Program-made: the position numbers and the translations under genes
Source of the DNA: Sulfurospirillaceae bacterium
Lineage (GTDB): Bacteria > Campylobacterota > Campylobacteria > Campylobacterales > Sulfurospirillaceae
Assembly (NCBI GenBank): GCA_033723415.1
Contig: JAWVXD010000001.1
Span: 384,001 to 448,000, forward strand
DNA length: 64,000 bases
Direction of reading: 5' to 3'
The notes under the pieces: model-generated
The model's database searches: none
Told to the model about the DNA's origin: nothing
What the model saw: the letters and a program-made list of their open reading frames with translations, nothing else
Part shown: positions 8,818 to 49,447 of the stretch, one piece after another
Layout of the letters: every line of letters begins with the position of its first letter
Position numbering within the stretch: the first letter of the stretch is position 1

Positions 8818-8841
8818 TAAAGGTAGAGAAAGGTAAAGGAA

Positions 8842-10530: not shown

Positions 10531-10540
10531 GACAAATAAT

Positions 10541-20616: not shown

Positions 20617-23478
20617 ATGTCCGAGACTTGCAATCGTAGACCAAAGTGTACACATCAAAAATATGGTGATTCTACGAAGTGTATCTTGCATTGTGATAAA
20701 TCAAATTTTAACGATGATGATATAAGATTTTTTTGGGAAAAAATACGGGAAGAATATATTCAGTACTCTTATCCTGATATTTCTAATGAGATTATCATAG
20801 AAGATGTAATCTTCCCTAAATTTGGAATTTTTAACAGGTATAACACATATTTTTTTCAAGGCAATTGTAGATTCCTTCATAATGTAAAATTTATAAAGTG
20901 TATTTTTACAGATAATTTTGATTTATCACAAGCCGAATCTAGCCAAAAGATAACATTTGATAATTGTACTTTCTATGGAGATATTCAGTTCAGCCAGTCA
21001 AATACAATAGAGATAATAAATAATTCTCAGTTTAAAAATGAAGTCTCATTTGGACATTCCTGCTGGAATAAATTAGAGATAAAAAGCACCAAGTTTTTTC
21101 AAGATACAAAAATATACATAAAAAATGATTTAAATATAGATGATTGTACTTTTAATAATGATGTCTTAATAGATGGTTTTACTACTTTGAACTTAGGTAT
21201 TAAAAACGGATCATATAAGAAACTAGTAACCATAAGTAATACCAAAAGTATAAAGCTTGAAGATGTTAAATTGAACTCAGATGTAAATTTCAGTGGGACT
21301 AATGATAATATCGATATAAAAAATATCGAATTTAAGAAAGATGTGACTTTTGATGCATTTAATAATTTACACTTAAACAACACCCAGTTTCATCAAAAAA
21401 GCAATTTTAGTCCAAACCCATATCATGACATCACTTTTGACAACACAAAAATGAATGATGTGGAATTACATTCTGGGAATACTTTGACTATCGTTAATTC
21501 TAGTGAAGTCAATGGAAATCTAAAGCTAAACGAAGTATATCAAAAGTTAAATATTGAAAATTGTAATATTAAGAAAAACTTGAATGTTGGCAATGTCAAG
21601 GAGATTATATTAAAGTGGAGTAGACTTGAAAAAAACTCAGTATTTAGCGGTGTATATAATGATGTAGATATCTTGGAATGCTCATTTAAAGACTTGACAA
21701 TAAATGCAACCAATACAATAAAAATAAGTGACAGTAAAATTACTGGTGACCTTGATTTGCTTGGACAAGACTATAAAGATATATCTGCCAGCCACACTGA
21801 GATTTCTGGTACGATACAAATAGGTAAAGCGACAAAAATAGAGTTAATTGATCTAAAACCAAATCCATCTCTAAAACTGATAAATGATGAATATGAAGAT
21901 GTCAATATAAAAGACTCAAGATTTACCGATGTTAAAATGAACTCTATAAAGGTATTAAATATTCAAAAGACTACAATAAATGGTATATTTAGTTTATTGG
22001 GAGAACAAAATCAAAATTTAACCTTTAATACGGTTAAATTTAAAAATAGATGTGATTTTCCTAATATTACTAAGTTGATTTTCAATAAAAGCAGTTTTGC
22101 AAAAGATGTGAATTTTAATACTTTAGGCAGGTTAGTTTCAAATCAAACTCAATTCAATGAAGACGTGAAATTTTTAGCAGAATGCACAACTATTGAACTT
22201 GAAAATTGCGAATTTCATCAAAAAATGCAACTCTCAAAAGTTACAAATTCGTTGGATTTCAAATCTTGTTGCTTTAAAGGGGAGGTCGATTTCAGGAATG
22301 GTGAATTTAAGGTAGTAAATATACTTTCTTCAACTTTTGAAGGTGATTTATTGTTATCCTCATCCATAATAGAAAAAATTCATCTAGATAAGATAACAGA
22401 AGAATTGGCTGAAAATAACTCATTTTCTTCCGTAGATTTTACTGAATCACAAATTAAGTATATTACTATAGCCAACTCTAATTTTAGTGGTACATTAAAA
22501 TTTACAAAGTTACAGCAAACACAATCTTTATTATCCTTAGATAATATTACAACGTCGACTATTGAATGTTTGATGATTGAACATAGTACGATAATGAACT
22601 TATTTAGGAGTTCCAAGCATCTAATAATTAACAATTTTACACTAGAAAATGTAAAATTAGACACAAATAGTTCAGAAATAGATTTAACAGATATAAAAAT
22701 AAGTGAACTAAAATTCAATAAAATAAGTATCTTAAAAAATATGAATTTTAGTGAAATGAAGATAAAAAAATTCATAATAGGCAATTCAAACATAGAACAT
22801 GTATTTAGAATAAAATACTCTGATATAGGTACTTTTACACTCATATCTAGTACTTTTGAAGACTTACAGATAATAGACAATAAATGTGAGCATTTTGATG
22901 AAGAAAAAAAATTAATATTGAGAAACACGACAATAAAAAATGCTGTATTAGACAAATTAAGATATAACAGTTTTATTATGAATGATGCTCATGTAAGTGA
23001 TGTTAAAATAGGTTATGTAAAGTTCAAAAAGGGGAGTAGAGAAACAAATAGATTTTTCAAAAATTATTATGATTCAATTAGTGATTATATTACAGCAAAT
23101 ACATATTATAAACAAGAGATGGAAGAACAACTCAAAGCTTCTTCTACTGATAACGGGGAGAAATTTGTTTTATGGATAGGGAAAACAGTTTCTAATTTTG
23201 GGCAAAGTTGGAGTCGACCTCTTTGCTTAATGATTTGTTTTTCAATTTTCTTTTTTATGTATATGCATTGGCAAATATTTTATAGCTACGGATGGCATTA
23301 TTTATGGCAAAGTAAATTAACTATTTGGAATGAATTTTGGGAATTTTTAAATCCATTTGTAAGAACAATTGATCCACAATACAAAGGAAGTTATAGTATT
23401 TGGATATTTCATAAAATATTGATGGCTATTCTCATGTATCATTTTATTGTAGCAGTAAAAAGAAAAACAAAAAGATAA
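20617..23478 (+). CDS. Large pentapeptide/beta-solenoid repeat protein with N-terminal Cys/His motif and C-terminal membrane domain
   Basis: C..C...CILHC N-terminus; many (I/L)x(F/I)xxxxFxxxxxF repeats; SNFGQSWSRPL followed by TM helices. Confidence 0.7.
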   Translation: MSETCNRRPKCTHQKYGDSTKCILHCDKSNFNDDDIRFFWEKIREEYIQYSYPDISNEIIIEDVIFPKFGIFNRYNTYFFQGNCRFLHNVKFIKCIFTDNFDLSQAESSQKITFDNCTFYGDIQFSQSNTIEIINNSQFKNEVSFGHSCWNKLEIKSTKFFQDTKIYIKNDLNIDDCTFNNDVLIDGFTTLNLGIKNGSYKKLVTISNTKSIKLEDVKLNSDVNFSGTNDNIDIKNIEFKKDVTFDAFNNLHLNNTQFHQKSNFSPNPYHDITFDNTKMNDVELHSGNTLTIVNSSEVNGNLKLNEVYQKLNIENCNIKKNLNVGNVKEIILKWSRLEKNSVFSGVYNDVDILECSFKDLTINATNTIKISDSKITGDLDLLGQDYKDISASHTEISGTIQIGKATKIELIDLKPNPSLKLINDEYEDVNIKDSRFTDVKMNSIKVLNIQKTTINGIFSLLGEQNQNLTFNTVKFKNRCDFPNITKLIFNKSSFAKDVNFNTLGRLVSNQTQFNEDVKFLAECTTIELENCEFHQKMQLSKVTNSLDFKSCCFKGEVDFRNGEFKVVNILSSTFEGDLLLSSSIIEKIHLDKITEELAENNSFSSVDFTESQIKYITIANSNFSGTLKFTKLQQTQSLLSLDNITTSTIECLMIEHSTIMNLFRSSKHLIINNFTLENVKLDTNSSEIDLTDIKISELKFNKISILKNMNFSEMKIKKFIIGNSNIEHVFRIKYSDIGTFTLISSTFEDLQIIDNKCEHFDEEKKLILRNTTIKNAVLDKLRYNSFIMNDAHVSDVKIGYVKFKKGSRETNRFFKNYYDSISDYITANTYYKQEMEEQLKASSTDNGEKFVLWIGKTVSNFGQSWSRPLCLMICFSIFFFMYMHWQIFYSYGWHYLWQSKLTIWNEFWEFLNPFVRTIDPQYKGSYSIWIFHKILMAILMYHFIVAVKRKTKR

Positions 23479-23504
23479 TAGAAACACAATATCAATTTCC
23501 CTTA

Positions 23505-24560
23505 TTAAAACAGATCCGTGGTTTTTTTCAATCTCTCTTGGTCAAAATGCGTATAAATTCTGGATGTATTGATATCTGCATGACCGAGGGATTCTTGAAC
23601 GAGTACCAAATCTCTGTTTTTTTGGTAGAGCAGGGTGGCAAACGTGTGTCTTAGCATATGGCAACCGTTTTTCTCTTTCCTTAAGCCCGCACTCATAAGT
23701 ATCTGCTCAACTAAGCGGCTTAGATAGGCTTGTGTTAATTTTGTGCCCTTTTGATTGCAGAACATCAGCCCGTCTTCACAATTTCTGATCTCAAGCCATG
23801 CAGCCAAGTCCTCTTTGATCACGCGCTCTCTTATCATGACGACTCTGGATTTATTTCCTTTTCCTGTTATCTTTATGATGTAATTATCTTCTTCTTTGAA
23901 AAAGTCCTTGATCTTGACACTGATCGCTTCTCCGACTCTGATGCCTGTATAAAGGATTAGTTTTATGACCAAGCGGTTCCTAGCGCCAAGTTCAGGAGTT
24001 TTGTAATCAAATGCATCGATTGCATTGATAAATCTAGAGGCTTCTTCTTTGTTAAGAAAAGAGGGCAGTTTGACACCGCTTTTCCCGCTCAAACCGCCCC
24101 AATTTTTAAGCTCTATACCATATCTGTAGGCGTTGCCGTTTTCATCTTCATTTTGTTTATCTATATAACCAAAAAAGCCAAGTAGGGCGATACGGTAGTT
24201 TTTTTTACTCGCATCTGACAAACTTGAAGTCTCACTCGCTAAAAAATCACTCAGAAGCTCTTCATCGATCTCTTTCATAGAACCTGCACCAAATCGCATA
24301 AGATACTCATATAGCTTTTCAAGTGGACGGTAATAGACATGAACGCCACTCATACCTATATTTCTCGCTTCTTTTAAAAGATTTGTTAGAGTTTTTATAT
24401 CACTGGTACCTTTTGCTAGATTTTGGATAATGATTGCCAGTTTGTCTTTGTCCGTTACTTGTCGATTTGAAAGAGTCGTAACCTTGTTGCGTATAAATCT
24501 ACTAAGCCAAAAAAGATACGTTTGACTAAAAGTCGACTCAAGATCAAGAGAATACCTCAT
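23505..24560 (-). CDS. xerH: XerH chromosome-dimer resolution tyrosine recombinase (host)
   Basis: Catalytic TGIR, GKGNK, HMLRH and LGH..INTSRIYTH; XerH-specific motifs SKKNYRIALLGFFGYIDKQN and LTQAYL..EKNG.H; difH site immediately upstream. Confidence 0.92.
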   Translation of the reverse strand: MRYSLDLESTFSQTYLFWLSRFIRNKVTTLSNRQVTDKDKLAIIIQNLAKGTSDIKTLTNLLKEARNIGMSGVHVYYRPLEKLYEYLMRFGAGSMKEIDEELLSDFLASETSSLSDASKKNYRIALLGFFGYIDKQNEDENGNAYRYGIELKNWGGLSGKSGVKLPSFLNKEEASRFINAIDAFDYKTPELGARNRLVIKLILYTGIRVGEAISVKIKDFFKEEDNYIIKITGKGNKSRVVMIRERVIKEDLAAWLEIRNCEDGLMFCNQKGTKLTQAYLSRLVEQILMSAGLRKEKNGCHMLRHTFATLLYQKNRDLVLVQESLGHADINTSRIYTHFDQERLKKTTDLF

Positions 24561-24586
24561 AATGTGCCTTTTTTTGATATTTTCAT

Positions 24587-24595
24587 ATTATAGCA
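24587..24595 (-). promoter_or_regulatory. Extended -10 promoter (TGCTATAAT) of xerH
   Basis: Reverse complement of attatagca, 26 bp upstream of the xerH ATG. Confidence 0.65.
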
Positions 24596-24608
24596 AAATT
24601 TAGCTTAA

Positions 24609-24642
24609 TTGTATTGGAAACTGTAATTTCCAAACTCTTATT
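24609..24642 (+). other. difH site / attL of the provirus
   Basis: ttgtaTTGGAAA-ctgtaa-TTTCCAAact: 7-bp inverted arms around a 6-bp core, matching the Campylobacter-type difH pattern, next to xerH. Confidence 0.88.
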
Positions 24643-24708
24643 TGGATTTATTGGCTTGAAACTTAAACGAGTGAGAAATTATGAGTTAAAACTTAAAAAG
24701 AGTATGTC

Positions 24709-25332
24709 ATGATAGACATAAAACTCATTGATAAGTTTAAAAATGGCCGTACAACGGTTGAGAATGATATTTTACTAGATAGTACCTTGACAGCAACTGA
24801 AAAGATAGTCTATATGTACATCGAAATGCTATCGCACAAAGATAACTACTGTTATGCGACAAATATACAGATATCGGATCTTACCGGACAAACAATAGAC
24901 TCATTGAAACAAGCATTTAAAAAACTCAAAAAGAAAAAATACATTGTAGTCGATACGCTACAAACGCGCACACCATACAAGCGCCGTATATTCACGGAAA
25001 CACGTTTTTTACGTGCTTGGAATCAAAACACCCTACCCCGTGACTGTACGGTAAAAGAGCCAATAAAACGGCCTGACGAGCTAGATAGACAAGCAATCAG
25101 CAAGTCATTTCCAAAGTTTAGGAAATTCATAAAATTATATCTTACAGAAAATCAATTTAACATCACTACACCGGGCGAACTTCAAAACAAAACTATCATG
25201 ATCAAAAAGAACGGCTACTACACAAGCATTTGGGATGCGCGAGATCTCACAAAAGATGAAAGCGTAACGTTTGAAATGCTGATGTTCGATAAACGCGAAA
25301 CATTGCTAGATAATTTTTTCAATAAGGAGTGA
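24709..25332 (+). CDS. Winged-helix replication initiator-like protein (proviral)
   Basis: ENDILLDSTLTATEKIVY...YCYATNIQISDLTG...FKKLKKKKYI is the HTH_36 / replisome-organiser N-terminal pattern. Confidence 0.65.
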   Translation: MIDIKLIDKFKNGRTTVENDILLDSTLTATEKIVYMYIEMLSHKDNYCYATNIQISDLTGQTIDSLKQAFKKLKKKKYIVVDTLQTRTPYKRRIFTETRFLRAWNQNTLPRDCTVKEPIKRPDELDRQAISKSFPKFRKFIKLYLTENQFNITTPGELQNKTIMIKKNGYYTSIWDARDLTKDESVTFEMLMFDKRETLLDNFFNKE

Positions 25333-25520
25333 AAATGCAAATCAAAAAAGGTGATATTATTGTCTATAAAGTCGGTAAGAATACAAAGCAAAGCAAAGTT
25401 AGAAAGATGAACTTTGATAATAGTGCTTCAATTTTTGCAAAAGAAAAGATCATACCTTGGGATAATATTTTAGGCGTATGCTCTACTATAAAGGATCATC
25501 ATGATAATCGAAATAAATGA
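25329..25520 (+). CDS. Proviral hypothetical protein (small, beta-rich)
   Basis: AAGGAG SD; overlaps the rep stop codon. Confidence 0.65.
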   Translation: MKMQIKKGDIIVYKVGKNTKQSKVRKMNFDNSASIFAKEKIIPWDNILGVCSTIKDHHDNRNK

Positions 25521-25716
25521 GGAAGATTATGACTTTATCATGTATCTTATCAGAGAGGAAATATATGATAAAAAAGACAGTTTAGAGATACTTAAAGGCA
25601 AAGATCATTTTTATGGTAACGAAGATCCATATAGGATAAAGAGGATCAAAGAGTTAAAAAGAGAGATTAGAAAGATTATTGAACTAAGGAGAGCTTTAAA
25701 ACGAGGAATAAAATAG
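25501..25716 (+). CDS. Proviral hypothetical protein (charged, coiled-coil)
   Basis: AAGGA SD; overlaps the previous gene. Confidence 0.65.
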   Translation: MIIEINEEDYDFIMYLIREEIYDKKDSLEILKGKDHFYGNEDPYRIKRIKELKREIRKIIELRRALKRGIK

Positions 25717-25726
25717 CTGTTTAACT

Positions 25727-25807
25727 CTCATATAGGGATACCGTAATTTCCCTATATGAGCGTTTTCATGTTACGGAATGAAAGCGCCTTTATATCAAAA
25801 TAAAGGC
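25727..25807 (+). promoter_or_regulatory. Three back-to-back hairpins with complementary loops; structured RNA/terminator between early and late genes
   Basis: 12-bp stem 25727-25760, 10-bp stem 25760-25787 and 8-bp stem 25786-25807; loop ccgtaa pairs with loop ttacgg. Confidence 0.6.
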
Positions 25808-25812
25808 ATAAA

Positions 25813-26262
25813 ATGGGAATAACAAATTTTTTCAGCGGTTTATTTAGCAGCGGAGCCGCAAAAGTAGTCGATGCGATCGGCAATGCAGCAGATAAACTCT
25901 TTACAAGCGATGCAGAGCGTTTACAATTCCGTAATGATCTACAAAAAGAGCTAGACGATCTCAAAGTCAAACTCAATGATGCACTTGCGGCATACGACAA
26001 AGAGATCACGACACGCTGGCAAAGCGATAACGAACACATCATCACGCGCTTAGTGCGCCCTCTTTCGTTTATATACGTTCTCGTCATATTTTCATTTATG
26101 GCGCTACTTGACGGAAATATCGGAACATTTCATATCAACACGGCTTATTTGCCTATATTTCAAGGGTTACTTGGAACTATGGTTGTCGCCTACTTTGGCA
26201 GTCGTGGTATCGAAAAAGTATCAAACATAATAAAAAAATCAAATCAAGGAGATAACCAATGA
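25813..26262 (+). CDS. Holin (GTA 3TM-holin-like family)
   Basis: DKLFTSDAER...RWQSD....RLVRPL, two TM helices, then YFGSRGIEK. Confidence 0.8.
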   Translation: MGITNFFSGLFSSGAAKVVDAIGNAADKLFTSDAERLQFRNDLQKELDDLKVKLNDALAAYDKEITTRWQSDNEHIITRLVRPLSFIYVLVIFSFMALLDGNIGTFHINTAYLPIFQGLLGTMVVAYFGSRGIEKVSNIIKKSNQGDNQ

Positions 26263-26594
26263 GTACAAAAAAGCAAATAGATCAGATCGAAGAGATAGAA
26301 GATCTACCCGATCAACTTGATCCACCAAATCCAGAGATTGAAAAGGAAAAGCCGGAAGTTGAGATAAAAGAAACTTTGACACCGGATCTCGAAAAAAAGA
26401 TTGATGAGATTGAACATAAATTAGATCAATATCATGTTCAATCTATCAAAAAAGAATTTGAAGATCATTCAAAAGAAAAACTACAAAGATCAAAATCTAA
26501 ATTTATTTGGTTATTTGGTAGTATTTGTGTTGCTAGTATTGGCTTAATACTTATAAAAAACGCTAAAAACAGCGAAACGGAGGCTAATGGATGA
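26259..26594 (+). CDS. Proviral membrane protein (acidic N-terminus, C-terminal TM)
   Basis: Overlapping ATGA start; one C-terminal hydrophobic helix. Confidence 0.7.
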   Translation: MSTKKQIDQIEEIEDLPDQLDPPNPEIEKEKPEVEIKETLTPDLEKKIDEIEHKLDQYHVQSIKKEFEDHSKEKLQRSKSKFIWLFGSICVASIGLILIKNAKNSETEANG

Positions 26595-27154
26595 GTAAAG
26601 AAGCGGTTGACGGAACGGATAATGGCGTAGAAAGGAATATTCCTTTTGAAGAAATGGGAAACAGTACGGAGGGCATTACCCGTACTGAGTTAATGGAAAA
26701 AACCGGCAAAGAACTAGCAAAAATGGCATTGCCTTATACAACTTGGAAAGAGAGTACATTATCAAAGTTATCTAAGCCAGAACTATGTGATATCATACTA
26801 ACAAAAGGAGCAAATAAAGAGCAGCAAGAGCCGAGAGCTAGAGCAGCAAGAGCCACGAGTGATAGTGAAGCAATTATCGAGACATTTCTTGCTATTGCAG
26901 AGAGTTTTAAGCTTAAAAGAGAAAAAGAGCCTTTAAATGCTACAGCCAAACAGATCTTTAAAAATAATGCCGTTAATTTAGTCGATAAAAAGGTTGAAGA
27001 GGAAACGTTAAGCAGCCACGGTGTAAATGTTACAGTGGCATTTATTGCCGGTACATTTTTAGCTATAGACGGGCTTATAGGCTTAGCAAACATCCCAACA
27101 TTCTTTTCAAAGATAAAGAGCAAACTAAATGTTAATAAAACAGAAGCAAAATAA
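26591..27154 (+). CDS. Proviral membrane protein upstream of the packaging ATPase
   Basis: Overlapping start; C-terminal TM and basic tail. Confidence 0.7.
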   Translation: MSKEAVDGTDNGVERNIPFEEMGNSTEGITRTELMEKTGKELAKMALPYTTWKESTLSKLSKPELCDIILTKGANKEQQEPRARAARATSDSEAIIETFLAIAESFKLKREKEPLNATAKQIFKNNAVNLVDKKVEEETLSSHGVNVTVAFIAGTFLAIDGLIGLANIPTFFSKIKSKLNVNKTEAK

Positions 27155-27785
27155 GATAATTACAGTTATCGGACATAAGGGCTATGGAAAAACAGCTTTA
27201 ACAGAAGCCCTTATGCTTATGTATGATAAACCGACAATTATCGCAGATCCACGATTTCAATACTCTACTTTTCAAAAGCGCCGTGTAAGCTTTAGATCTG
27301 TAGGTGATTTTAGAAAGTGGATCTATAACACGGCAAATTTCAAAGATTTTTATAAATACAAACTCGAACTCGTCGTAAATGCTTTTGATGATACATTTGA
27401 AGAGTTAGCACATATTGTGAGACAAATGAGATCTTTGATGTTTGTCGTCGATGAAGTAGATATGTTCTTAGATCCACGGGCTACAAAAAACAACTCCTTG
27501 AACAAAATTATTCAGTATGGTAGACACCACGAGATCGACATCATAACTACTTCTAGGAGACCGGCAAACATCTCGCGTAACTTAACATCTCAAACAGATA
27601 TATTTTATTTCTCTAAGTTACGCGAGCCAACTGATAAACTGTACATAAAACAAGCGATAGGTGCAGAATATGTCAGTACCGTTGAAAACTTAGAGAGATT
27701 TAGCTTTTTAGAGTTTGAAGACGAAGAACACCAAAAGATCATCACTACTTCTGAAAGAGATCTTGAACTATTACAAAGAGGGTGA
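27129..27785 (+). CDS. Genome-packaging ATPase, FtsK/HerA (A32-like) family
   Basis: Walker A GHKGYGKT, Walker B FVVDE, arginine finger GRH, TSRRP motif and REP.D; 218 aa, similar in size to STIV B204 and PM2 P9. Confidence 0.88.
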   Translation: MLIKQKQNKIITVIGHKGYGKTALTEALMLMYDKPTIIADPRFQYSTFQKRRVSFRSVGDFRKWIYNTANFKDFYKYKLELVVNAFDDTFEELAHIVRQMRSLMFVVDEVDMFLDPRATKNNSLNKIIQYGRHHEIDIITTSRRPANISRNLTSQTDIFYFSKLREPTDKLYIKQAIGAEYVSTVENLERFSFLEFEDEEHQKIITTSERDLELLQRG

Positions 27786-27810
27786 GGAAAAATCTTTGAA
27801 AGGAGGAAAA

Positions 27811-27906
27811 ATGCAAGCAAAATTGATGAAAGGCTTTGTCTTAGGTATCACCGTAGTTGTTATAAGTGGCGTTGTGGGTAAATGGATCCCATCCGTAAAA
27901 ATATAA
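27811..27906 (+). CDS. Small viral membrane protein (31 aa)
   Basis: AGGAGG SD; MQAKLMKGFVLGITVVVISGVVGKWIPSVKI. Confidence 0.75.
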   Translation: MQAKLMKGFVLGITVVVISGVVGKWIPSVKI

Positions 27907-27932
27907 AAAAATTTATCATATAAGGAAAAAAT

Positions 27933-28040
27933 ATGAATATCACAAAACTTGATGTTTATTTGGCAGCAGGTATCTTAGTTGGCATTGCAGCCGGGAAAAA
28001 ATTTGTTGATCCGATCTTAGTTTCGGTTTTGGGGGCATAG
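27933..28040 (+). CDS. Small viral membrane protein (35 aa, absent from the ORF track)
   Basis: AAGGA SD; MNITKLDVYLAAGILVGIAAGKKFVDPILVSVLGA; stop is 1 nt before the MCP start. Confidence 0.75.
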   Translation: MNITKLDVYLAAGILVGIAAGKKFVDPILVSVLGA

Positions 28041-28041
28041 T

Positions 28042-29001
28042 ATGGCGCAATCATTAAAAGTAAAAGAAAATTCCGCAACGTGGGCAGCTTCTACTCAATC
28101 CAGGATCCCTCTTAGTAGAAATTATCATGTGGAAAATTACCTTGTGAAAATAAAAGTAACACATGATAACGGGGCAACCCCTGTGTTTTATAATGAGGGC
28201 GTTTTTTCTTTAATTAACAATATACAGTTGATTGGAAATGGCAATGAAAATATTAAACAAATGCCAGCAAACAAATTATATATCGACAGTATTTTAAGAA
28301 GTGGGAAAAATGGCGGTAACTCTCTTGATACTACAGCAAACAAAACCGGACTTACAAGCTATGTTTGGGCCCGTATCAATCTAAGTATGCCAAATTCTGT
28401 TCGACCTTGGGACACTATCCTATGGACAAAACCATTCCAATCTCTCGATCTTATGATTGATTGGGCTTCAAGTGCAAATATCGGATCTAATATTACTGTA
28501 ACAGCAGCAGAAATGACAGTATTTTCAAATCAGTTAATCGGATATAGTAGAGCAAAAGGCGAAGTGATTAAATACTATGAAGAAACAGCACTTAAAGAAG
28601 AAGTGACTGGAACAAATGCTCAATTAACTTTCAATTTACCAGTAAATAAACTTTATAGAGCTATTTCTATAGTATCAACAATTAATGGCTTAAGAGCTGA
28701 TACTGTGATAAACTCTATTAAGCTAAAAAGCGGGCAAACAGTTTTTTGTGATTGGGATGCTGAAGCATTTAACGAACACAATAAAGAAACATATCGTATT
28801 GAATCATCAACAGATTTTAAAGGAATCTATGTAGTTGATTTTGCAGAGCGTGGAAGACTAAGCGATATGCTGAATACAATCGTAGCACAAGGTGGTTACA
28901 ATACTTTAGAACTTGTTTTAAACGTCACAAAACAAACGGGATCAAACTTTGTAGACGTCTATTTTGACACGGTAAAACAGACTACAGCAACGGAGGTTTA
29001 A
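28042..29001 (+). CDS. Double jelly-roll major capsid protein (STIV-like)
   Basis: 319 aa, beta-rich, in two halves; segments WAAST..RIPLSRN, FSLINNIQL..NG, LPVNKLYR, N.ETY and GIYVVDF recall STIV B345 (from memory); follows ATPase and small TM genes. Confidence 0.82.
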   Translation: MAQSLKVKENSATWAASTQSRIPLSRNYHVENYLVKIKVTHDNGATPVFYNEGVFSLINNIQLIGNGNENIKQMPANKLYIDSILRSGKNGGNSLDTTANKTGLTSYVWARINLSMPNSVRPWDTILWTKPFQSLDLMIDWASSANIGSNITVTAAEMTVFSNQLIGYSRAKGEVIKYYEETALKEEVTGTNAQLTFNLPVNKLYRAISIVSTINGLRADTVINSIKLKSGQTVFCDWDAEAFNEHNKETYRIESSTDFKGIYVVDFAERGRLSDMLNTIVAQGGYNTLELVLNVTKQTGSNFVDVYFDTVKQTTATEV

Positions 29002-29002
29002 T

Positions 29003-29308
29003 ATGCCTAATTATAACGGGGATGGCACAAACGGCGGTATTTCCACCGCCTCCACTCCAATTTCAGGAACGGTAAATGGTACTGATTGGTTATCAAATAT
29101 TTTAAAGCCTATTAGTAATGCCGTTGTTACAGTTGCACAAACACAAGCACAAGTTGACGCACTAAAATCACAGACCGCTACACAACAAAATTATCAAAAT
29201 ACACAAAACGCAATTGGATCTAAAAATATCATTGGCGGTGTGGATAACAATATCTTACTTTTGGGTTTAGTTGGTGTAGTCGGAATTTACATGTTTATGA
29301 AAGGGTAA
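29003..29308 (+). CDS. Virion membrane protein (Gln/Thr-rich, C-terminal TM)
   Basis: C-terminal ILLLGLVGVVGIYMFMK. Confidence 0.7.
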   Translation: MPNYNGDGTNGGISTASTPISGTVNGTDWLSNILKPISNAVVTVAQTQAQVDALKSQTATQQNYQNTQNAIGSKNIIGGVDNNILLLGLVGVVGIYMFMKG

Positions 29309-29311
29309 ATT

Positions 29312-29698
29312 ATGGGTTTCTTTGGTGGAAGTGCTAGTAGTAGCGGAATTGTAACAAGTAGCATTAATTTTAACCCGTCAATGCAGTTTGGCACAGATAA
29401 TACAGCAAAGCCCTCTCAATCAGTAAGTCAGACACCCAAATTGACACAAACTACAAAGGATCAAGGGCTAGCAGCCGCCGCAAGTGTTGGGCTTGGTTTT
29501 GGTGGGAGTGGATCTGCAGGGCCGGCAAGTTTGGCAGAAGCTCCTCTGGTTGGATCTGCACAAACTGGAAGCGCTGCACAGCCTTTAAGTACTTTGGCAT
29601 CTAATTACAAAAAATATTTGCCTTTACTTGGCTTAGCCGGAGTTGGTGGATATATGCTAATTGTAAATGATAAGTCTGGAAAAAAGGCTAAAAAATGA
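29312..29698 (+). CDS. Virion membrane protein (Gly/Ser/Ala-rich, C-terminal TM and basic tail)
   Basis: Low-complexity body; LPLLGLAGVGGYMLIV followed by a Lys-rich tail. Confidence 0.7.
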   Translation: MGFFGGSASSSGIVTSSINFNPSMQFGTDNTAKPSQSVSQTPKLTQTTKDQGLAAAASVGLGFGGSGSAGPASLAEAPLVGSAQTGSAAQPLSTLASNYKKYLPLLGLAGVGGYMLIVNDKSGKKAKK

Positions 29699-30009
29699 GT
29701 TGGTTAAGTAGTCTTTTAGGTGGTGGAGGCAGCACAAGCTCCACTACCTCAAACACAACGGTAAGTGTAAGTCCAACTACAATTATAAATACCGATAAAC
29801 TGGCTCAAGCTATAGCAGACGGAAATGCAACACAAGCACAACTTGCACAAGCAACAATCACAGCACAAGTAGCCGAACAAAACGCAAAATTGCAACAAAA
29901 CGCGCAGATCTTTGATACCTTAAGAGCAGGCGCAAAAAAATATGCTTTTTTAAGTTTGCTAGGCTTTGGAGTTTACAAGATTTTTAAAAACAAAAGAGGT
30001 AAAAAATGA
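29695..30009 (+). CDS. Virion membrane protein (C-terminal TM and basic tail)
   Basis: Overlapping start; Ala/Gln helix; YAFLSLLGFGVY then KNKRGKK. Confidence 0.7.
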   Translation: MSWLSSLLGGGGSTSSTTSNTTVSVSPTTIINTDKLAQAIADGNATQAQLAQATITAQVAEQNAKLQQNAQIFDTLRAGAKKYAFLSLLGFGVYKIFKNKRGKK

Positions 30010-30560
30010 ATTACAACGTAATTACAAAAGATATATCTAACGGGCTATCTCTTAGTCAAAGCAATACACTTGGAAAAGGAGATTATATTATCTTAAGATA
30101 TGCGCCGGATCTTGCGAATGTACGAGTGAGATTAAACAGCCCTGATGCTCCTGCAATAAGTATGATACAAGATGACAGCATCAATGCAAAAGGCATAAAT
30201 CTTGTATATATCGAGTGTGACCCAGTAGCAGCAGAAAAGATAATCTTTGCCCAGGGCAATACAGATCTAGACTTTCAAATCAATCCGGCTCCTGCTCTTA
30301 AAACTGTAAATGTAAACGGATCTTTTATGCCGCGTACGGATCAAAAACAAACGATAGCTGCAGGAGCAAATTTTATATTAGACACAACGACACTTAAAGC
30401 GATCAGGTTTCTAGCTACTGATTACGTTGATGTGTCACTCAATGGCAGTGCAATAAACTATCAAATGCTAGAAGATGAGATCTACACGGGTAATATCACG
30501 TCGTTAAAGTTTACAAACAACACGGCTTCAGCCATTGATCTTGTAATATGGGAGATGTAA
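30006..30560 (+). CDS. Beta-rich virion protein, penton/vertex candidate
   Basis: Alternating hydrophobic beta-strand pattern; lies between the membrane proteins and the spike. Confidence 0.5.
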   Translation: MNYNVITKDISNGLSLSQSNTLGKGDYIILRYAPDLANVRVRLNSPDAPAISMIQDDSINAKGINLVYIECDPVAAEKIIFAQGNTDLDFQINPAPALKTVNVNGSFMPRTDQKQTIAAGANFILDTTTLKAIRFLATDYVDVSLNGSAINYQMLEDEIYTGNITSLKFTNNTASAIDLVIWEM

Positions 30561-30561
30561 A

Positions 30562-30942
30562 ATGTTAGGTATTTCAAGAGCTTTGGTAGAAAAACTTTTC
30601 GCAAAAAAAAGCGACAAAAATCAGTGTACAGCTTGGGTTGTATTTGACGGAACAACAACTCCTCCAACAATAAAAGATAGTTATAATGTTATTTCTGTTA
30701 CTAAAATTGCAGTCGGTGTCTACGATATAAATTTTACAATACCTATGAAAAATATAAACTACCAAACAAGTGGATCTGTAACAGATGATAATTCTTCTAG
30801 TGGGTTTATCTATGAAAGAGGCACTTTTGCACAAAATAGAACCGTTAATAAATGCAGAATTGTAACTATTCAGATATCTGGAGGTAATACAAGTACAGTT
30901 GATCGTTCAGGGATAACATTCAGCGCAATTGGAGGTATCTAA
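30562..30942 (+). CDS. Receptor-binding spike / tail-fibre-like domain protein
   Basis: AWVVFDG....IKDSYNVISVTK..VGVY.INF resembles a widespread phage fibre-tip domain. Confidence 0.65.
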   Translation: MLGISRALVEKLFAKKSDKNQCTAWVVFDGTTTPPTIKDSYNVISVTKIAVGVYDINFTIPMKNINYQTSGSVTDDNSSSGFIYERGTFAQNRTVNKCRIVTIQISGGNTSTVDRSGITFSAIGGI

Positions 30943-31253
30943 TGGGATATTTTAAAGTAGTTAACGATTATGTTCAAACGTGTAGTAAAAAAATAGATGA
31001 TACTTGGTTTCCAATTACTAGAGATCAAAACGGAAATATCATCGGGCCGAGTGTTCTAGTCACGCAAATTGCAGATGAACAAAAAGCAACTTCAAACGCA
31101 AAAATAATGCAGCAGATAACAGCACTTGAAAGTGAACTGATAAGACCGATGCGAGAGCTTTTAAGCTCAATTGTAACAGACAAAACCTATGCTCAAACAA
31201 AGGTAAATGACATCGAAACAAAAATTGAAGCTTTGAGGGCTCAAATTGTCTAA
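30942..31253 (+). CDS. Putative fibre assembly chaperone-like protein
   Basis: C-terminal helix QITALESELIRPMRELL...IEALRAQI, as in proteins encoded after fibre genes. Confidence 0.5.
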   Translation: MGYFKVVNDYVQTCSKKIDDTWFPITRDQNGNIIGPSVLVTQIADEQKATSNAKIMQQITALESELIRPMRELLSSIVTDKTYAQTKVNDIETKIEALRAQIV

Positions 31254-31779
31254 GAAAAAAATAATAGCCTATGGCTCTTTTTTGGTGTCATTGGTATATT
31301 TTAGGAGTTTTTTTATGTACGGATTAATTTCAAAAAAACATTTGGACGAAATTATCGTCAATGTAGTTAATACACTAGGTGGAGGTCAAAATGCTATAGA
31401 TCTTTTAAGCGAAACGGCTATGTCGGAGACACACTACGGAGATACACCGGACCTACACTTACACAGCGGTTATGGAATTTTTCAATTTGATAAGCCAGGC
31501 TTTGATGATGTAGTTGCCAGAACACCGCAAAGTACAAAGGATCTCATCAAAAAAGTCTATGACATTGACATCGATCAAGTCAGCATATTGGCGCTGCAAT
31601 GGTCGCCGCTTTTAAGTACGATCTTTGCACGACTTTTTTACATGCTTCGCCCTGGTGCGATCCCTGATACAATTCAAGGACGGGCACAGTATTGGAAACA
31701 GTATTACAACACTTTTGCGGGAGCAGGAACGGTGCAACATTATCTTAATGCAAACCAAACCGAAAGGTTTAACGCATGA
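31246..31779 (+). CDS. Lysozyme-like / lytic transglycosylase (muralytic) protein
   Basis: ETAMSET..G, GYGIFQ and A.YWKQYYNT..GAGT motifs; alternative start ATG at 31315 with AGGAG SD. Confidence 0.65.
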   Translation: MSKKKIIAYGSFLVSLVYFRSFFMYGLISKKHLDEIIVNVVNTLGGGQNAIDLLSETAMSETHYGDTPDLHLHSGYGIFQFDKPGFDDVVARTPQSTKDLIKKVYDIDIDQVSILALQWSPLLSTIFARLFYMLRPGAIPDTIQGRAQYWKQYYNTFAGAGTVQHYLNANQTERFNA

Positions 31780-32156
31780 CACCAACTTTAAATAATAATT
31801 TAGCGGATATGTTTGTTGCGTCCACACCGGTTTTGCAGACGGCACCGATACAGTCAAGCAATTTAAGTACATTTGATAAGATATTATACGGTTATGATAA
31901 TATGATCTCAAATGCTAGTAATTCAGCAGATCAAACGCTTACAGATCAAGCGATTGCACAAGAAAAATTTAAACAAAATGCATCGAATATGTATACAAAT
32001 TTTAAAGCAAGTCTTGGCAGCGCATACGATACGATCAGCAAAGATCTAAATATCTCAAAAAATATTTTGATCTATGGCAGCATTGCCGCCGGATCTCTTT
32101 TTCTTTGGGATAAGATCGGGCGTGATATTTACTACATGACACAAAAGGGGAAATAA
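31776..32156 (+). CDS. Virion membrane protein
   Basis: Overlapping start; C-terminal TM ILIYGSIAAGSLFLW. Confidence 0.65.
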   Translation: MTPTLNNNLADMFVASTPVLQTAPIQSSNLSTFDKILYGYDNMISNASNSADQTLTDQAIAQEKFKQNASNMYTNFKASLGSAYDTISKDLNISKNILIYGSIAAGSLFLWDKIGRDIYYMTQKGK

Positions 32157-32278
32157 TGCACGAAATAGCAATGTGGATGCAAATTTTAACACCGGTAGTT
32201 ATTTTGCCACTAGCAAAGACTTTAAGCGATCTAAAAAGAGACGTTGCCGTTCTTATGGAACGTACAAAGGGAATGTAA
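32156..32278 (+). CDS. Small hydrophobic/coiled-coil viral protein (40 aa, absent from the ORF track)
   Basis: TAATG overlap with the previous gene; MHEIAMWMQILTPVVILPLAKTLSDLKRDVAVLMERTKGM. Confidence 0.65.
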   Translation: MHEIAMWMQILTPVVILPLAKTLSDLKRDVAVLMERTKGM

Positions 32279-32279
32279 T

Positions 32280-32414
32280 ATGGACTTAACACAAGCAAGC
32301 AACGCAGTCGGAGCACAAATAAAAGAAGGGATCATACAATCTGGTAAAGATATCGGTTTTAAGATTACACTTGGTTTATGTATTATTGCAATCGCAATTT
32401 ATGCTAAAAAGTAG
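32280..32414 (+). CDS. Small viral membrane protein (44 aa, absent from the ORF track)
   Basis: Starts 1 nt after the previous stop; C-terminal TM ITLGLCIIAIAIYAKK. Confidence 0.65.
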   Translation: MDLTQASNAVGAQIKEGIIQSGKDIGFKITLGLCIIAIAIYAKK

Positions 32415-32439
32415 TGACGAGATCTCGTCACACTTTTTT
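32414..32439 (+). terminator. Intrinsic terminator of the viral structural operon
   Basis: Palindrome gtgacgagatctcgtcac followed by a T-tract. Confidence 0.7.
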
Positions 32440-32658
32440 AATCTCTTTTTTGTCTTAAGTTTCAAATCAACCTTAAGCCTTTTTCTATCTCGGATCTCCT
32501 GGCGCTGCACAAATCAAAACTACTATAAAATCGACATTTCATTTTTTAAAAAATTTATAAAATCGTTTAAGTTTCAAAATAACCTTAAACGATTTTATTC
32601 ATATAGATCTTCTTCTTTATGATATACTTTTCTAAAAATTTATATCAAAAGGCTTTAT

Positions 32659-33057
32659 ATGACAAAAATTATACTCTCAAGCATAGCGATATCCGCCCTA
32701 TTCTTTGGATGTGCTAGTAAAGAGCCATTATCAACCGTTGAAGCAACTGACTACGCTATGAGCTGCAATGCTCTTATAAGTGAAATTAGCGACATAAGAT
32801 CACAACTACAAACGGAAGAAACTACAAATGAAGCTAAAAATATCATCGGTAAAACTTTAACATTCGGAATTTATAGCGCAGACAATGAAAAAGCCATACT
32901 TTTGCGCGAACGTGCAAAGAGTTTACAGCTTATATATACAATAAAACAAGCAAAAAATGAGTGCAAACAACTAACTGAAAAAGATCTACAAGTAAATAGC
33001 ACACCCGTGAGAGAAATAAAAAATCTAAAAGCACAAACAAAAGAGCTTAAAAATTAA
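32659..33057 (+). CDS. Proviral lipoprotein (moron / superinfection-exclusion candidate)
   Basis: Signal peptide with lipobox FFGC; own TGaTATACT extended -10 at about 32619-32627; flanked by hairpins. Confidence 0.7.
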   Translation: MTKIILSSIAISALFFGCASKEPLSTVEATDYAMSCNALISEISDIRSQLQTEETTNEAKNIIGKTLTFGIYSADNEKAILLRERAKSLQLIYTIKQAKNECKQLTEKDLQVNSTPVREIKNLKAQTKELKN

Positions 33058-33094
33058 TTTCGCGCCAGATCTTTACGTTCAAACTCAAAAACTA

Positions 33095-33136
33095 TAAATT
33101 TACCCTTTCAGGATTAATTCTTTGAGGGTAAATTTA
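33095..33136. terminator. Hairpin downstream of the lipoprotein gene
   Basis: 12-bp perfect inverted repeat taaatttaccct / agggtaaattta. Confidence 0.55.
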
Positions 33137-33454
33137 AACAATCTCAAAAATTATAGGTACTTGCCTATAAATAAAAAAAATTGATTGTAGAGCGTTTGAG
33201 AGCGTTTTTTTACTCAATAAAATCTCAACTTCAAAAATCTTTCACATATAAACAGCTTATGTACGGTGCTTTGATCCTAAATCAAAGCACTAAAAAGCAC
33301 GCGACAGCGTGTTTCATCCTAAGAGCAAAGAAAAACACAGCCGCGAGGCTGTTTCCTTATTGAGTCGCAGCGACGCGAAAATCAAATCAAGCCTAAATAA
33401 TATTATTTATCTAAGATATCTATCAAAAAAAGACTTTGTATATATATAGGAAAC

Positions 33455-33528
33455 CTAGTGTCTCATAGACACCAGAAAGTAATGACCTAGTGTTTCATAG
33501 ACACTAGCTGTTGTCTCACAGACACTAG
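33455..33528. repeat. Three 21-bp palindromic repeats (iteron/operator-like) followed by an AT-rich tract
   Basis: ctagtgtctcatagacaccag (33455), ctagtgtttcatagacactag (33487) and ctgttgtctcacagacactag (33508). Confidence 0.8.
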
Positions 33529-33683
33529 ATAATAAAAAATTTATTAATTTTTTAAAAAATTAAGCTTGGTTTAAAAAGTTTAGTATTAGAATGGTGCTTT
33601 AAGTTTCAAAGCTACGAAGAGTAGCCGTGCAATGCTTGCAACAAAACACGGCTTACAAATACAACCTATTACGGAGGTTATAA

Positions 33684-33866
33684 ATGTATTACAATCAAAT
33701 TATATCCACAAATCCTTTCAATATACTTAAATTTTCTTCAAAATCAAAATTAACCTTAAACAAAAAAAATGTTATAAAGTTTGAAAATAATATTTCAAAA
33801 TACCCTATTTATCGAAGTTTTGAAATGGTGTCAACTATAATTTCCAAACTTTTATTAATATGCTAG
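33684..33866 (+). CDS. Proviral ORF spanning attR; C-terminus replaced on integration (80 aa in the circular form)
   Basis: Strong GGAGG SD; the frame continues through the att core into 24623-24712. Confidence 0.6.
   Translation: MYYNQIISTNPFNILKFSSKSKLTLNKKNVIKFENNISKYPIYRSFEMVSTIISKLLLIC
33833..33856 (+). other. attR: partial difH (core and right arm)
   Basis: aactataatttccaaacttttatt versus attL aactgtaatttccaaactcttatt (22/24). Confidence 0.88.
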
Positions 33867-33871
33867 ATAAT

Positions 33872-33901
33872 AGAGAGTCCAAATAATATATTGGACTCTC
33901 T
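33872..33901. terminator. Intrinsic terminator hairpin downstream of the Sel1 gene
   Basis: 11-bp stem agagagtccaa / ttggactctct. Confidence 0.65.
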
Positions 33902-33919
33902 TCTTTGAATCTAAGTTTA

Positions 33920-35692
33920 TTATTTTTTATCACAAAGGTTTGAATATAGTTTGCACAAATAATTCAAACCTTTTACAGCAAACTTATTACCTTGTTTTGA
34001 TGCTCTCTCAAATTCTTCTTTTGCTTTATACACATCTTTATCCACTCCAAACCCTTTGAAATACATATAACCAAGCATGTATTGAGCTTTTGAATAATTC
34101 TGTTTTGCCGCTTTTTGATAAAATCTAAAAGCAACATCATATTTTTTAGGTACACCATGTCCCAAATAATACATATTTCCCATATTATACTGTGATGGTG
34201 CATAGTTTTTCATAGCAGCTTTTAAGTATAATTCTACTGCTTTTTTGTAGTTGATTGGGACACCCCTTCCCATTTGATATACAATACCAAGATTATTCTC
34301 TGCAAGAACATAATTATGATCAGCTGATCTAGTATACCAATACAAGGCTAGTTGATAATCAACTTTCACACCCAGCCCTTTTGTATACATATAACCTAAG
34401 TTATATTCCGCTTTTGGATAGTTTTTTGTTGCAGCCTTTTTATATAATTTTATAGCAAGTGGATAATTTTGTTTTACGCCTTTTCCTATCATGTATAGAT
34501 TGCCTAAATTATACTCTGCTTCCGGCATATTATATCTAGCTGCTTCTTCATATAATTGAGCTGCCTTCATATAATCTTGCTTTACACCATATCCGTATTG
34601 ATATAATACACCAAGATTATTTAGTGCTTTTGTATCATGTTGAGCTGCAGCCTTTTTATACCACTTAACAGCTTTGGTATAATCAGTCTTGACTCCTTGT
34701 CCGTATGCGTACATGTATCCTAGATTATATTGCGCCTGATGCATATTGTTTTTGGCAGCTTTTTTGTATAGCTCTATAGCCTTGGCATAATCAACATCAA
34801 CGCCATGTCCATACTGGTACATAACACCTAAATTGTTCTGCGCCAAGGGATAATTTTGATCAGCTGCCCTTTTGTACCATTTAAAAGCATTTTTGAAGTC
34901 CGCAACACCTTTATTATAGTGTTCATAAGCATAACCCAGATTGTACTGGGCTTGAGCCAAGTTTTGTTTAGCTGCTAGAGTATAAAGAGAAAGGGCTTTA
35001 TCTTCATCTTTCTCAACACCTCTTCCCAACTCATACATTATTCCTAGATTATTTTGAGCCAATGGGTAATGTTGTGCAGCAGCTTTTTTATACCAATACA
35101 CTGCCTTCTCATAATTTACTTTTACCCCTTGTCCGTATGCATACATATACCCTAGATTATACTGAGCTTCGGGCATATTACTTTGGGCCGCTTTTTTATA
35201 CAAGTCTAAAGCTTTAGCATAGTCTTGTGCGACTCCTTTACCTCGTTGATACATATTCCCTAAATTATTTTGAGCCTTATCAAAGTTTTGATCGGCTGCT
35301 TTTTTATACCATCTGAGAGCTTCTTGATAATCAACTGAAGTGCCATCACCTTTTTCATAAATATAAGCTAGATTATATTGTGCCTGAGGCATATTTTGTT
35401 CAGCTGCATGCTTATAGTATTCTATTGCTTTTGAATAGTCTATATCTACACCGTTGCCAAATTGATACATAGTACCTAGGATATACCAAGCATTTGCATT
35501 ATTATCTTGAATTGCTGCTTGTTTAAAGTACTTTAGGGCTTGTTCGTACTTGCCTTGGTCATAGTAGTTAATCGCAGTATTAAAAACTTTGCTATGTGTC
35601 ATGATTTGACCTGTTTTTGGCTGAGATGTAGCACACCCGCTAAATAAAACTATAGCAATTGTCATACTAATTTGAACAAGAATCTTTCTCAT
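33920..35692 (-). CDS. Sel1-like repeat lipoprotein
   Basis: Lipobox FSGC; about 15 36-aa repeats of A(Q/E)(Y/N)NLG.MY..G.GV..DY..A..WY.KAA. Confidence 0.93.
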   Translation of the reverse strand: MRKILVQISMTIAIVLFSGCATSQPKTGQIMTHSKVFNTAINYYDQGKYEQALKYFKQAAIQDNNANAWYILGTMYQFGNGVDIDYSKAIEYYKHAAEQNMPQAQYNLAYIYEKGDGTSVDYQEALRWYKKAADQNFDKAQNNLGNMYQRGKGVAQDYAKALDLYKKAAQSNMPEAQYNLGYMYAYGQGVKVNYEKAVYWYKKAAAQHYPLAQNNLGIMYELGRGVEKDEDKALSLYTLAAKQNLAQAQYNLGYAYEHYNKGVADFKNAFKWYKRAADQNYPLAQNNLGVMYQYGHGVDVDYAKAIELYKKAAKNNMHQAQYNLGYMYAYGQGVKTDYTKAVKWYKKAAAQHDTKALNNLGVLYQYGYGVKQDYMKAAQLYEEAARYNMPEAEYNLGNLYMIGKGVKQNYPLAIKLYKKAATKNYPKAEYNLGYMYTKGLGVKVDYQLALYWYTRSADHNYVLAENNLGIVYQMGRGVPINYKKAVELYLKAAMKNYAPSQYNMGNMYYLGHGVPKKYDVAFRFYQKAAKQNYSKAQYMLGYMYFKGFGVDKDVYKAKEEFERASKQGNKFAVKGLNYLCKLYSNLCDKK

Positions 35693-47996: not shown

Positions 47997-48041
47997 TGTA
48001 TAATCAAAATATATGCTAGAGAAACTATAAGGAGCTCTATT

Positions 48042-49322: not shown

Positions 49323-49345
49323 TGTTCATATAGGATGATCAATCA

Positions 49346-49374
49346 GCGGAAACGTATAGTATATGCGTTTCCGC
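49346..49374. terminator. Hairpin between convergent genes
   Basis: gcggaaacgtata / tatgcgtttccgc. Confidence 0.6.
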
Positions 49375-49447
49375 CTATTCTTCAGGCTGGAAGAGGCAGC
49401 ATGATACCTTCCCTTTACGAGAAATTATGTAAAAAGGAAAGTATTCT

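Follow-up and report, generated by a model that had tools for sequence, protein, structure and literature searches.

A small double jelly-roll virus that probably borrows the host recombinase XerH to integrate at difH in a Sulfurospirillaceae bacterium

Double jelly-roll (DJR) prophages integrated at dif sites have been described from Vibrio; as set out in PMC12715192, they are small, tailless and integrase-less, carry a dif-like attP that is either full-length or one-armed, regenerate dif at one junction, and have integrase-bearing sister lineages. Those prophages exploit the two-recombinase XerC/D system of Gammaproteobacteria and carry the terminal genes rstR and xafT, whereas the element described here belongs to Campylobacterota and lies at difH, beside the gene for XerH. 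It spans 9,214 bp from centre to centre of its two flanking sites (24621 to 33835) in a 64,000-nt stretch of a Sulfurospirillaceae genome (the window; all positions are numbered within it). We interpret it as the integrated genome of a small circular double-stranded DNA (dsDNA) DJR virus, probably a recombinase-free integrative mobile element exploiting Xer (IMEX) that uses the XerH/difH system. The genome (G000) is a 2.43-Mb assembly of 17 contigs, and the contig bearing the element is termed C1.

Other described systems share part of this arrangement. LME-1 of Legionella pneumophila combines a dif mimic, a single host Xer, one wild-type and one modified dif, and a stable integrated form (PMC9765430). 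It differs in using XerL and not XerH, in having its dif far from the xer gene and in not being a DJR virus of this lineage; according to the same source it was established by experiment, whereas the present element is known from sequence comparison. TLC-phi of Vibrio cholerae and the gonococcal genetic island (GGI) carry an attP made of one arm plus the centre, with the divergent arm where FtsK-activated recombination starts (PMC5357621). Both keep the XerC arm, and the present virus likewise keeps the weak arm, the left arm of difH corresponding by analogy to the XerD arm (PMC5241119). These are, however, XerC/D systems, and TLC-phi supplies its own activator, XafT (PMC5357621).

On the viral side, Sulfurimonas-linked contigs encoding DJR major capsid proteins (DJR-MCP) resemble the element in size (7.4-10.7 kb), in coding for a DJR capsid, an ATPase and a helix-turn-helix (HTH) protein, and in stemming from metagenome-assembled genomes of Campylobacterota (PMC11531552); they probably include relatives of the circular genomes L035 and L036 considered below. 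Xer/dif integration does not figure in that paper, where the term 'xer' has 0 occurrences. Corticovirus PM2 and the PM2-like prophages share a circular dsDNA genome of ~10 kb, a DJR capsid and an ATPase gene adjoining that of the capsid; some PM2-like prophages lack an integrase, and the CTX-phi/XerCD route was raised for them as a possibility (PMC1950889). PM2 differs in that its sequence likeness to our capsid protein is marginal (Pfam P2_C, E 5.7e-5, 23.5 bits, under the 25-bit cut-off) and in that the folds of PRD1 P3 and the MCP of Sulfolobus turreted icosahedral virus (STIV) score better than PM2 P2. Full-text literature searches, with subscription-only papers outside their coverage, found no element at difH or exploiting XerH. 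An initial annotation of this DNA had regarded the combination as undescribed. This holds for the XerH/difH case, but a DJR IMEX was already known for XerCD in Vibrio (PMC12715192) and a single-recombinase IMEX for XerL in Legionella (PMC9765430). In our own comparisons, members of this DJR lineage would also use classical dif in XerC/D hosts.

The left end of the element coincides with a bona fide difH. An intact difH-type site about 50 bp from xerH had been claimed in the initial annotation, and the site is indeed present; it is intergenic, with 53 nt between it and the xerH ATG, and TTGGAAA CTGTAA TTTCCAA is located at 24614-24633. It agrees with the published difH sites of A. butzleri, Campylobacter, Nitratiruptor and Wolinella (Carnoy and Roten, PMC2731167, Table 2), one symmetric, genus-wide G/C change per arm (GGAAA / TTTCC) setting it apart from the published consensus, and its arms have the same one-base asymmetry as those of H. 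pylori difH. The features by which difH is recognized in PMC2731167 are all found here: inverted arms, a 6-bp centre, an intergenic position, low G+C content, proximity to the terminus and linkage to xerH. Cumulative GC skew along C1 climbs from the start of the contig, reaches a noisy plateau from 345 kb and a maximum at 410-415 kb, and then drops; the left difH, at C1:408,614 (408.6 kb), sits beside this maximum, in line with the skew switch that had been anticipated. We conclude that the sequence at 24611-24636 is a true difH, located where the skew of its contig switches.

It is also the only complete difH in the genome. The 16-mer formed by the centre and right arm occurs twice in the 2.43-Mb assembly, once at each end of the element; the reversed pattern, used as a control, gave 0 matches across the 61 family genomes searched. 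A second perfect TTGGAAA-N6-TTTCCAA palindrome, at C6:118222, was evaluated as the true difH and rejected: it lies within a 490-aa open reading frame (ORF), its centre and outer arms misfit, C6 lacks a skew switch, and the recombinase close by is the integrase of a tailed prophage, encoded next to a terminase. Viewed in its own locus (L001, G000:C6, 8223-8242), this palindrome lies ~450 bp upstream of two tailed-prophage genes, for a 302-aa tyrosine integrase and a large terminase (8695-11596).

The neighbouring recombinase is a full-length XerH, matching H. pylori XerH (PDB 5jjv/5jk0) over residues 11-349 (phmmer E 1.6e-100) and containing the XerH-type N-terminal domain Phage_int_SAM_6 (PF18644, E 5.9e-56) and Phage_integrase (PF00589, E 1e-31). 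Phage_integrase domains occur at three places in G000, none inside the element. The other two tyrosine recombinases are the 302-aa integrase next to the terminase on C6 and a 426-aa integrase on C3, and no XerC/D-grade recombinase was found among the tyrosine recombinases of the assembly; XerH is the sole Xer recombinase of G000. XerH orthologues (E <= 1e-40) were identified in 24 of 40 relatives, with difH adjoining in most, and a full difH core lay within 1.5 kb of xerH at 13 of 25 xerH loci, own locus counted. One locus of the genus, L067 (G009:C20, 953-5110), has a periplasmic-binding-like gene and a DUF389 gene between xerH and a single difH 3 kb away; xerH and difH are therefore not tightly linked in every member of the genus.

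At the right boundary, the initial annotation had described a repeat of the core and right arm, 22/24 identical, with the left arm missing. Both parts of this description were borne out. Positions 33833-33856 and 24619-24642 agree at 22 of 24 bases and are the sole two matches in the window with <=2 mismatches, none of 100 dinucleotide shuffles searched for end repeats in the same way yielded a match, and the ten bases left of the attR centre (ATGGTGTCAA) form no left arm. Nucleotide homology with the related element of the genome G013 stops at 33855, just beyond the right arm. This junction pattern would be that of an IMEX rebuilding a complete dif at one end, and on this comparison the host-virus crossover falls within or at the edges of the attL centre. 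At 33776-33795, 37 nt upstream of attR, there is also a sequence in inverted orientation (AAAGTTTGAAAA...) that resembles an arm and has 85% complementarity to the core and right arm.

The contents of the element are predicted to be viral (Table 1). The AlphaFold2 model of the capsid protein has a mean predicted local distance difference test score (pLDDT) of 91.4 and a predicted template modelling score (pTM) of 0.86, and Foldseek matched it in the PDB to PR772/PRD1 P3 (E 5.7e-23, TM 0.76), the STIV MCP (E 1e-19) and PM2 P2 (E 4.7e-17), with PBCV-1 Vp54 also among the matches (E range 6e-23 to 2e-16). The packaging ATPase, encoded 256 nt upstream of the capsid gene, is 54-90% identical among relatives, and its only match in GenBank phages was a distant one (22%) to the ATP-binding protein of Marinomonas phage YY. 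The recombinase search covered 36 element ORFs, namely 18 plus-strand ORFs of >=60 aa (Pfam and PHROGs) and 18 more of 51-129 aa on both strands (Pfam), and within these no integrase, resolvase or transposase family was found; RstR- or XafT-like families were likewise absent from the Pfam scans. With the fold models and these scans, the element is best described as a DJR virus without a recombinase, and both of these points, already made in the initial annotation, are upheld.

Table 1. Features of the window and of related elements. Positions in the first 16 rows refer to the window; difH type, classical dif type and own-recombinase type denote the attachment system of each relative.
Feature	Position or arrangement	Strand	Evidence or remarks
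xerH, host tyrosine recombinase for chromosome dimer resolution, 351 aa, outside the element	23505..24560	-	phmmer vs PDB; Pfam
attL, complete difH: left arm GTATTGGAAA (24611-24620), centre CTGTAA (24621-24626), right arm TTTCCAAACT (24627-24636)	24611..24636	+	Sequence; published difH match
Putative replication initiator or regulator (rep), 207 aa, HTH_36, first gene past the attachment site	24709..25332	+	Pfam HTH_36 E 2.8e-8; PHROG replication-initiation families, best phrog_428 E 4e-9
Two small ORFs, 63 and 71 aa, without Pfam/PHROG family	25329..25716	+	71-aa ORF 63% identical in G013 element
Holin-like membrane protein, 149 aa	25813..26262	+	phrog_3427 'holin' E 8.8e-14
Two ORFs, 111 and 187 aa, without Pfam or PHROG family; 187-aa protein lineage-conserved	26259..27154	+	tblastn 40-74% identity
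Predicted genome-packaging ATPase, 218 aa, P-loop, FtsK/HerA-like	27129..27785	+	phrog_2666 E 5.6e-22; Pfam AAA_22 E 8.8e-7; weak HerA matches
Predicted major capsid protein, DJR, 319 aa	28042..29001	+	AlphaFold2 model; Foldseek
Three small Gly/Ser/Ala/Thr-rich proteins (101, 128, 104 aa), hydrophobic C-terminal ends	29003..30009	+	Weak PHROG matches without function; 44-62% identical in G013
Three ORFs, 184, 126, 103 aa; 184-aa lineage-conserved; 126-aa like tail-fibre/receptor-binding domains	30006..31253	+	phrog_11355 'tail fiber protein' E 2.5e-12 (126-aa)
177-aa protein (phrog_3108, family without function) and 126-aa ORF	31246..32156	+	phrog_3108 E 3.6e-23
Last clear gene, 132-aa predicted lipoprotein whose signal peptide ends in Cys	32659..33057	+	Translation; 83% identical in G013 element
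Three copies of 23-nt palindromic repeat (core CTAGTGTCTCATAGACAC)	33453..33528	.	Repeat search: family D1, 100/91/78% identity; inverted repeats I3, I8
attR, partial difH: degenerate left arm ATGGTGTCAA	33825..33850	+	Repeat search; comparison with G013
attR centre CTATAA	33835..33840	+	
attR right arm TTTCCAAACT	33841..33850	+	
G013, difH type, integrated	Full difH and partial site 9,159 bp apart		XerH 79% identical; collinear element, 72-79% nucleotide identity
L034, difH type, integrated	xerH, full difH, element, partial site		XerH 53%, capsid 40% identical
L045, difH type, integrated	xerH, difH, HTH_36 gene, element, contig end		XerH 61% identical
G244, classical dif type, integrated	Full classical dif, 9.5-kb relative, partial copy		Complete 2.56-Mb chromosome, element at 50.7%
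L042, classical dif type, integrated	Element between full and partial classical dif, as in G244		Opposite arm conserved
L035/L050 and L040, free circular genomes	Classical-dif-like site about 200 bp upstream of HTH_36 gene		Terminal overlaps 55-127 nt
L036/L052, free circular genome	Classical-dif-like site about 200 bp upstream of HTH_36 gene		Self-overlap after about 9.08 kb
L043 (circular) and L038, own-recombinase type	L043 1489-2190; L038 2299-2967		Small serine recombinase, Resolvase domain E 7e-36 and 1e-31

Several other genes are shared across the lineage. The identities given for the region 26259..27154 were seen in every related element covering it, and the 177-aa phrog_3108 protein was conserved in all relatives (34-78% identical). 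Homologues of the holin-like protein are present in L032, L033, L035, L036, L040 and L050. Judging from their composition and hydrophobic ends, the three Gly/Ser/Ala/Thr-rich proteins are probably virion membrane proteins. The right end of the element is a 780-bp non-coding region about 75% identical to that of G013; it holds the palindromic repeats, for which an operator or origin is possible, and an Rfam scan of 23000-35000 returned no family. The capsid family was rare, occurring in 4 of 401 genomes sampled from the order (own genome counted), and tblastn of the capsid against 50,697 GenBank phage records found no match. Scans of IMG/VR with capsid and ATPase alignments found no relative, and returned one weak, irrelevant locus. 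Outside the element, a 953-aa protein with mostly pentapeptide-like repeats and a hydrophobic C-terminal end (20617-23478) adjoins xerH on the side opposite difH, and G+C content rises to 0.47 and 0.41 within 48001-50000 against a background of about 0.33.

Related elements were recovered from other hosts, each counted once (duplicates across collections are L032 = L037 and L036 = L052, with L035/L050 the same virus and L033 contained within L064). A database search returned 34 capsid homologues; some of them are sourced from Sulfurospirillum and Campylobacteraceae, the closest is attributed to an isolate, and several sit on 9.3-9.8 kb contigs. Relatives at xerH-difH occur in three further genomes or contigs (G013, L034 and L045). 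Past the right arm of the G013 element, the DNA is unrelated to the window up to hspR/cbpA. L034 has an unusual centre, CTACAC in place of CTATAA, at both of its sites; for its attR, a candidate at 15700 (3 mismatches) was dropped for a better site at 15813. In G024 (= L033/L064), which we excluded from the case counts, the element lies against a site that resembles difH and has a canonical centre, away from xerH and in inverted orientation, and the contig ends within the capsid gene. The right arm variant of that site, TTTTCACAG, recurs in the xerH-adjacent site of L024, and G024 is probably a further difH-type case.

Other members of the lineage are associated with classical dif. The full dif of G244 has 25 of 28 positions in common with published Sulfurimonas dif, its full and partial copies share a 23-nt exact repeat, and the genome encodes two XerC/D-like Xer genes and gave no match to PF18644, the XerH domain; L042 is the second case with an XerC/D-like host. 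Relatives that are circular by terminal overlap (L035, L040, L043, L050) measure 8.6-9.0 kb. An HTH_36 gene follows the dif-like site also in L033, L042, L045, L040 and L050, and the attachment site of the lineage is always just upstream of rep. In L043 and L038, a serine recombinase occupies the place that the dif mimic has in other relatives, and on this comparison the lysogeny module appears to be exchangeable in the virus lineage.

The mimic follows the host at each level compared. Its dif type tracks the host Xer, being difH where the host has XerH and classical dif where it has XerC/D, while the structural genes are homologous throughout; the virus-derived right arm is TTTCC where host arms are GGAAA and TTTTC where they are GAAAA; and the centre of the mimic is CTATAA or CTACAC as in the host. 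The presence of a real XerH next door, IMEX-like junctions, and relatives at both xerH-difH and classical dif lend support to the view, put forward in the initial annotation, of an element exploiting XerH, and the virus very probably borrows the host XerH for integration.

Inserts without viral genes were also found at difH in G008 and G350, and they have the same polarity: a full difH is followed by cargo and then by a site whose left arm is degenerate. At L029 (G008:C19, 2563-3752), the xerH-adjacent full difH is followed by partial sites at 2813 (2 mismatches) and 3737. The 1.17-kb insert holds a pair of small overlapping ORFs (131 and 115 aa) without a Pfam family, and may be a mini-IMEX or a remnant. 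At L066 (G350:C13, 4154-7956), the cargo is an islet of 3.8 kb, flanked on one side by a complete difH and on the other by a partial site abutting xerH. It contains a weak lysozyme-like ORF, a 340-aa unassigned ORF and genes for a radical-SAM protein and a family-2 glycosyltransferase. Because the right arm faces xerH in the genus of G350, the islet parts xerH from the working difH.

These observations suggest the following pathway. The circular virus would carry, just upstream of rep, an attP with a degenerate left arm, the 6-bp centre of its host and a good right arm. Host XerH would synapse this attP with chromosomal difH, and strands would be exchanged at the centre. The resulting attL, composed of the host left arm and the virus right arm, would again be a complete difH beside xerH, so that dimer resolution could continue, and attR, composed of the degenerate viral arm and the host right arm, would be a poor XerH substrate. 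The prophage should therefore be stable, as proposed for GGI and LME-1. XerH as the catalyst and the order of strand exchange are inferred from comparison of sites and hosts.

Several points weigh against this pathway. One comes from H. pylori (PMC5241119). The two arms of its difH differ by a single base pair, which is inserted in the left arm. XerH has the higher affinity for this left arm and cuts it before the right one. XerH activity depends on the left arm, and FtsK is needed in vivo; substrates with right arms only were uncleaved and gave scarcely any recombination. The attP proposed here is missing the very arm that H. pylori XerH requires, and a non-canonical pathway or a helper must therefore be assumed. 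Recombination could start by right-arm-first exchange resolved by replication, by XerH loading cooperatively onto the degenerate arm, or with a viral helper; retention of the weak arm would, in turn, explain stable lysogeny. The centres of attL and attR differ by one base (CTGTAA vs CTATAA), which could hinder excision. CTATAA is the form at difH in all nine other genus genomes with the 16-mer, and the G/A difference is compatible with a heteroduplex centre or later mutation. Among the XerH-type elements, neither an excised circle nor an attP or an empty attB was observed. The sole sequencing run with DNA of the element, represented by contigs only, shows just the integrated form, spanned by a single 50-kb contig; two further runs from that study gave no matching contigs. 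A lone 'joint' from 22749 to 26219 was disregarded, being a 248-nt contig at a depth of 2.1 with 22-nt sides. The closest relative, G013, also carries the element, and the right-flank gene CbpA, found in 4 of 5 other genus members, is always on another contig than xerH. Finally, with 17 contigs in the assembly, the GC-skew evidence holds at contig level only, and most of the 18 main element ORFs have no known function or family, so that a novel recombinase among them is conceivable.

It is conceivable, but on balance unlikely, that the virus did enter through XerH at difH and is now a locked-in or domesticated prophage, without excision or virions, the scar of a past IMEX event. The degenerate arm of attR, the mismatched centres and the observation of the integrated form only would all fit, and stable, poorly excising IMEXs are known in GGI and LME-1 (PMC9765430). 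Synonymous sites are saturated between G000 and G013 in element genes as well as in host genes, a similarity that is compatible with long residence. However, all genes are intact, with ratios of nonsynonymous to synonymous substitution (dN/dS) of 0.06-0.20 for the seven element genes compared between these two genomes, and metagenomes contain circular relatives. Between G000 and G013, moreover, the elements differ by replacement of genes or modules, the holin-like gene not being found in G013 and the fast-diverging 126-aa receptor-like protein being only 42% identical, against 64% for the 184-aa ORF; two separate viruses therefore fit better than one inherited relic.

The unassigned ORFs leave some room for a recombinase of unrecognized family, such as the HTH rep or one of these ORFs, that prefers dif-like DNA, and L043 and L038 demonstrate that the lineage can encode recombinases. 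We nevertheless consider this very unlikely, given that the target shifts from difH to the unrelated classical dif with the Xer type of the host while the core genes stay homologous, a change of target not expected of a recombinase encoded by these conserved genes. The crossovers are also at the Xer centre, the mimic copies host arm and centre variants, and the non-viral inserts show equal site polarity with other cargo. RecA-dependent homologous recombination over a short chance identity with difH would account for the 16-23 bp of identity flanking the elements, but we hold it to be highly improbable: RecA acts poorly on identities of this length, the recombination would need to have happened repeatedly, across at least six hosts and two dif types, and free circular relatives already have the mimic. 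Scarcely credible at all is the notion that 'xerH' is the element's own integrase and that the true left boundary lies left of 23505. A tyrosine recombinase does directly abut the element, yet it is the only XerH-type gene of the genome and orthologous to H. pylori XerH, the xerH-difH pair is kept in relatives without the capsid gene (e.g., G003, G008, G017, G020), the bounding repeat lies right of xerH, and other DNA separates xerH from difH in G350 and G009. An integrated DJR virus that borrows XerH accordingly remains the interpretation that we favour.

A broader scenario, about as likely as not, can be offered as a tentative extension. One ~9-kb DJR lineage of Campylobacterota may have moved between XerH/difH, XerC/D/dif and a serine-recombinase module by swapping a cassette of <=40 bp upstream of rep, and XerH may also integrate an attP without the strong, first-cleaved left arm, via a right-arm-first, FtsK-independent route or with an undiscovered viral activator of XerH.

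Xer recombination has been dissected with the help of IMEXs such as CTX-phi, TLC-phi, GGI and LME-1. XerH is, to our knowledge, the only Xer recombinase with crystal structures of synaptic complexes, but it is not known to be exploited by any natural element. A natural attP without the arm required in H. pylori would offer a direct test of XerH activation and of the order of strand exchange. For virus surveys, the absence of capsid matches in IMG/VR and among GenBank phages indicates that standard virus collections miss these small tailless viruses. For the hosts, the finding would mean that sulfur-cycling Campylobacterota harbour small tailless viruses with a temperate lifestyle and that the terminus of these genomes gathers foreign DNA via difH.

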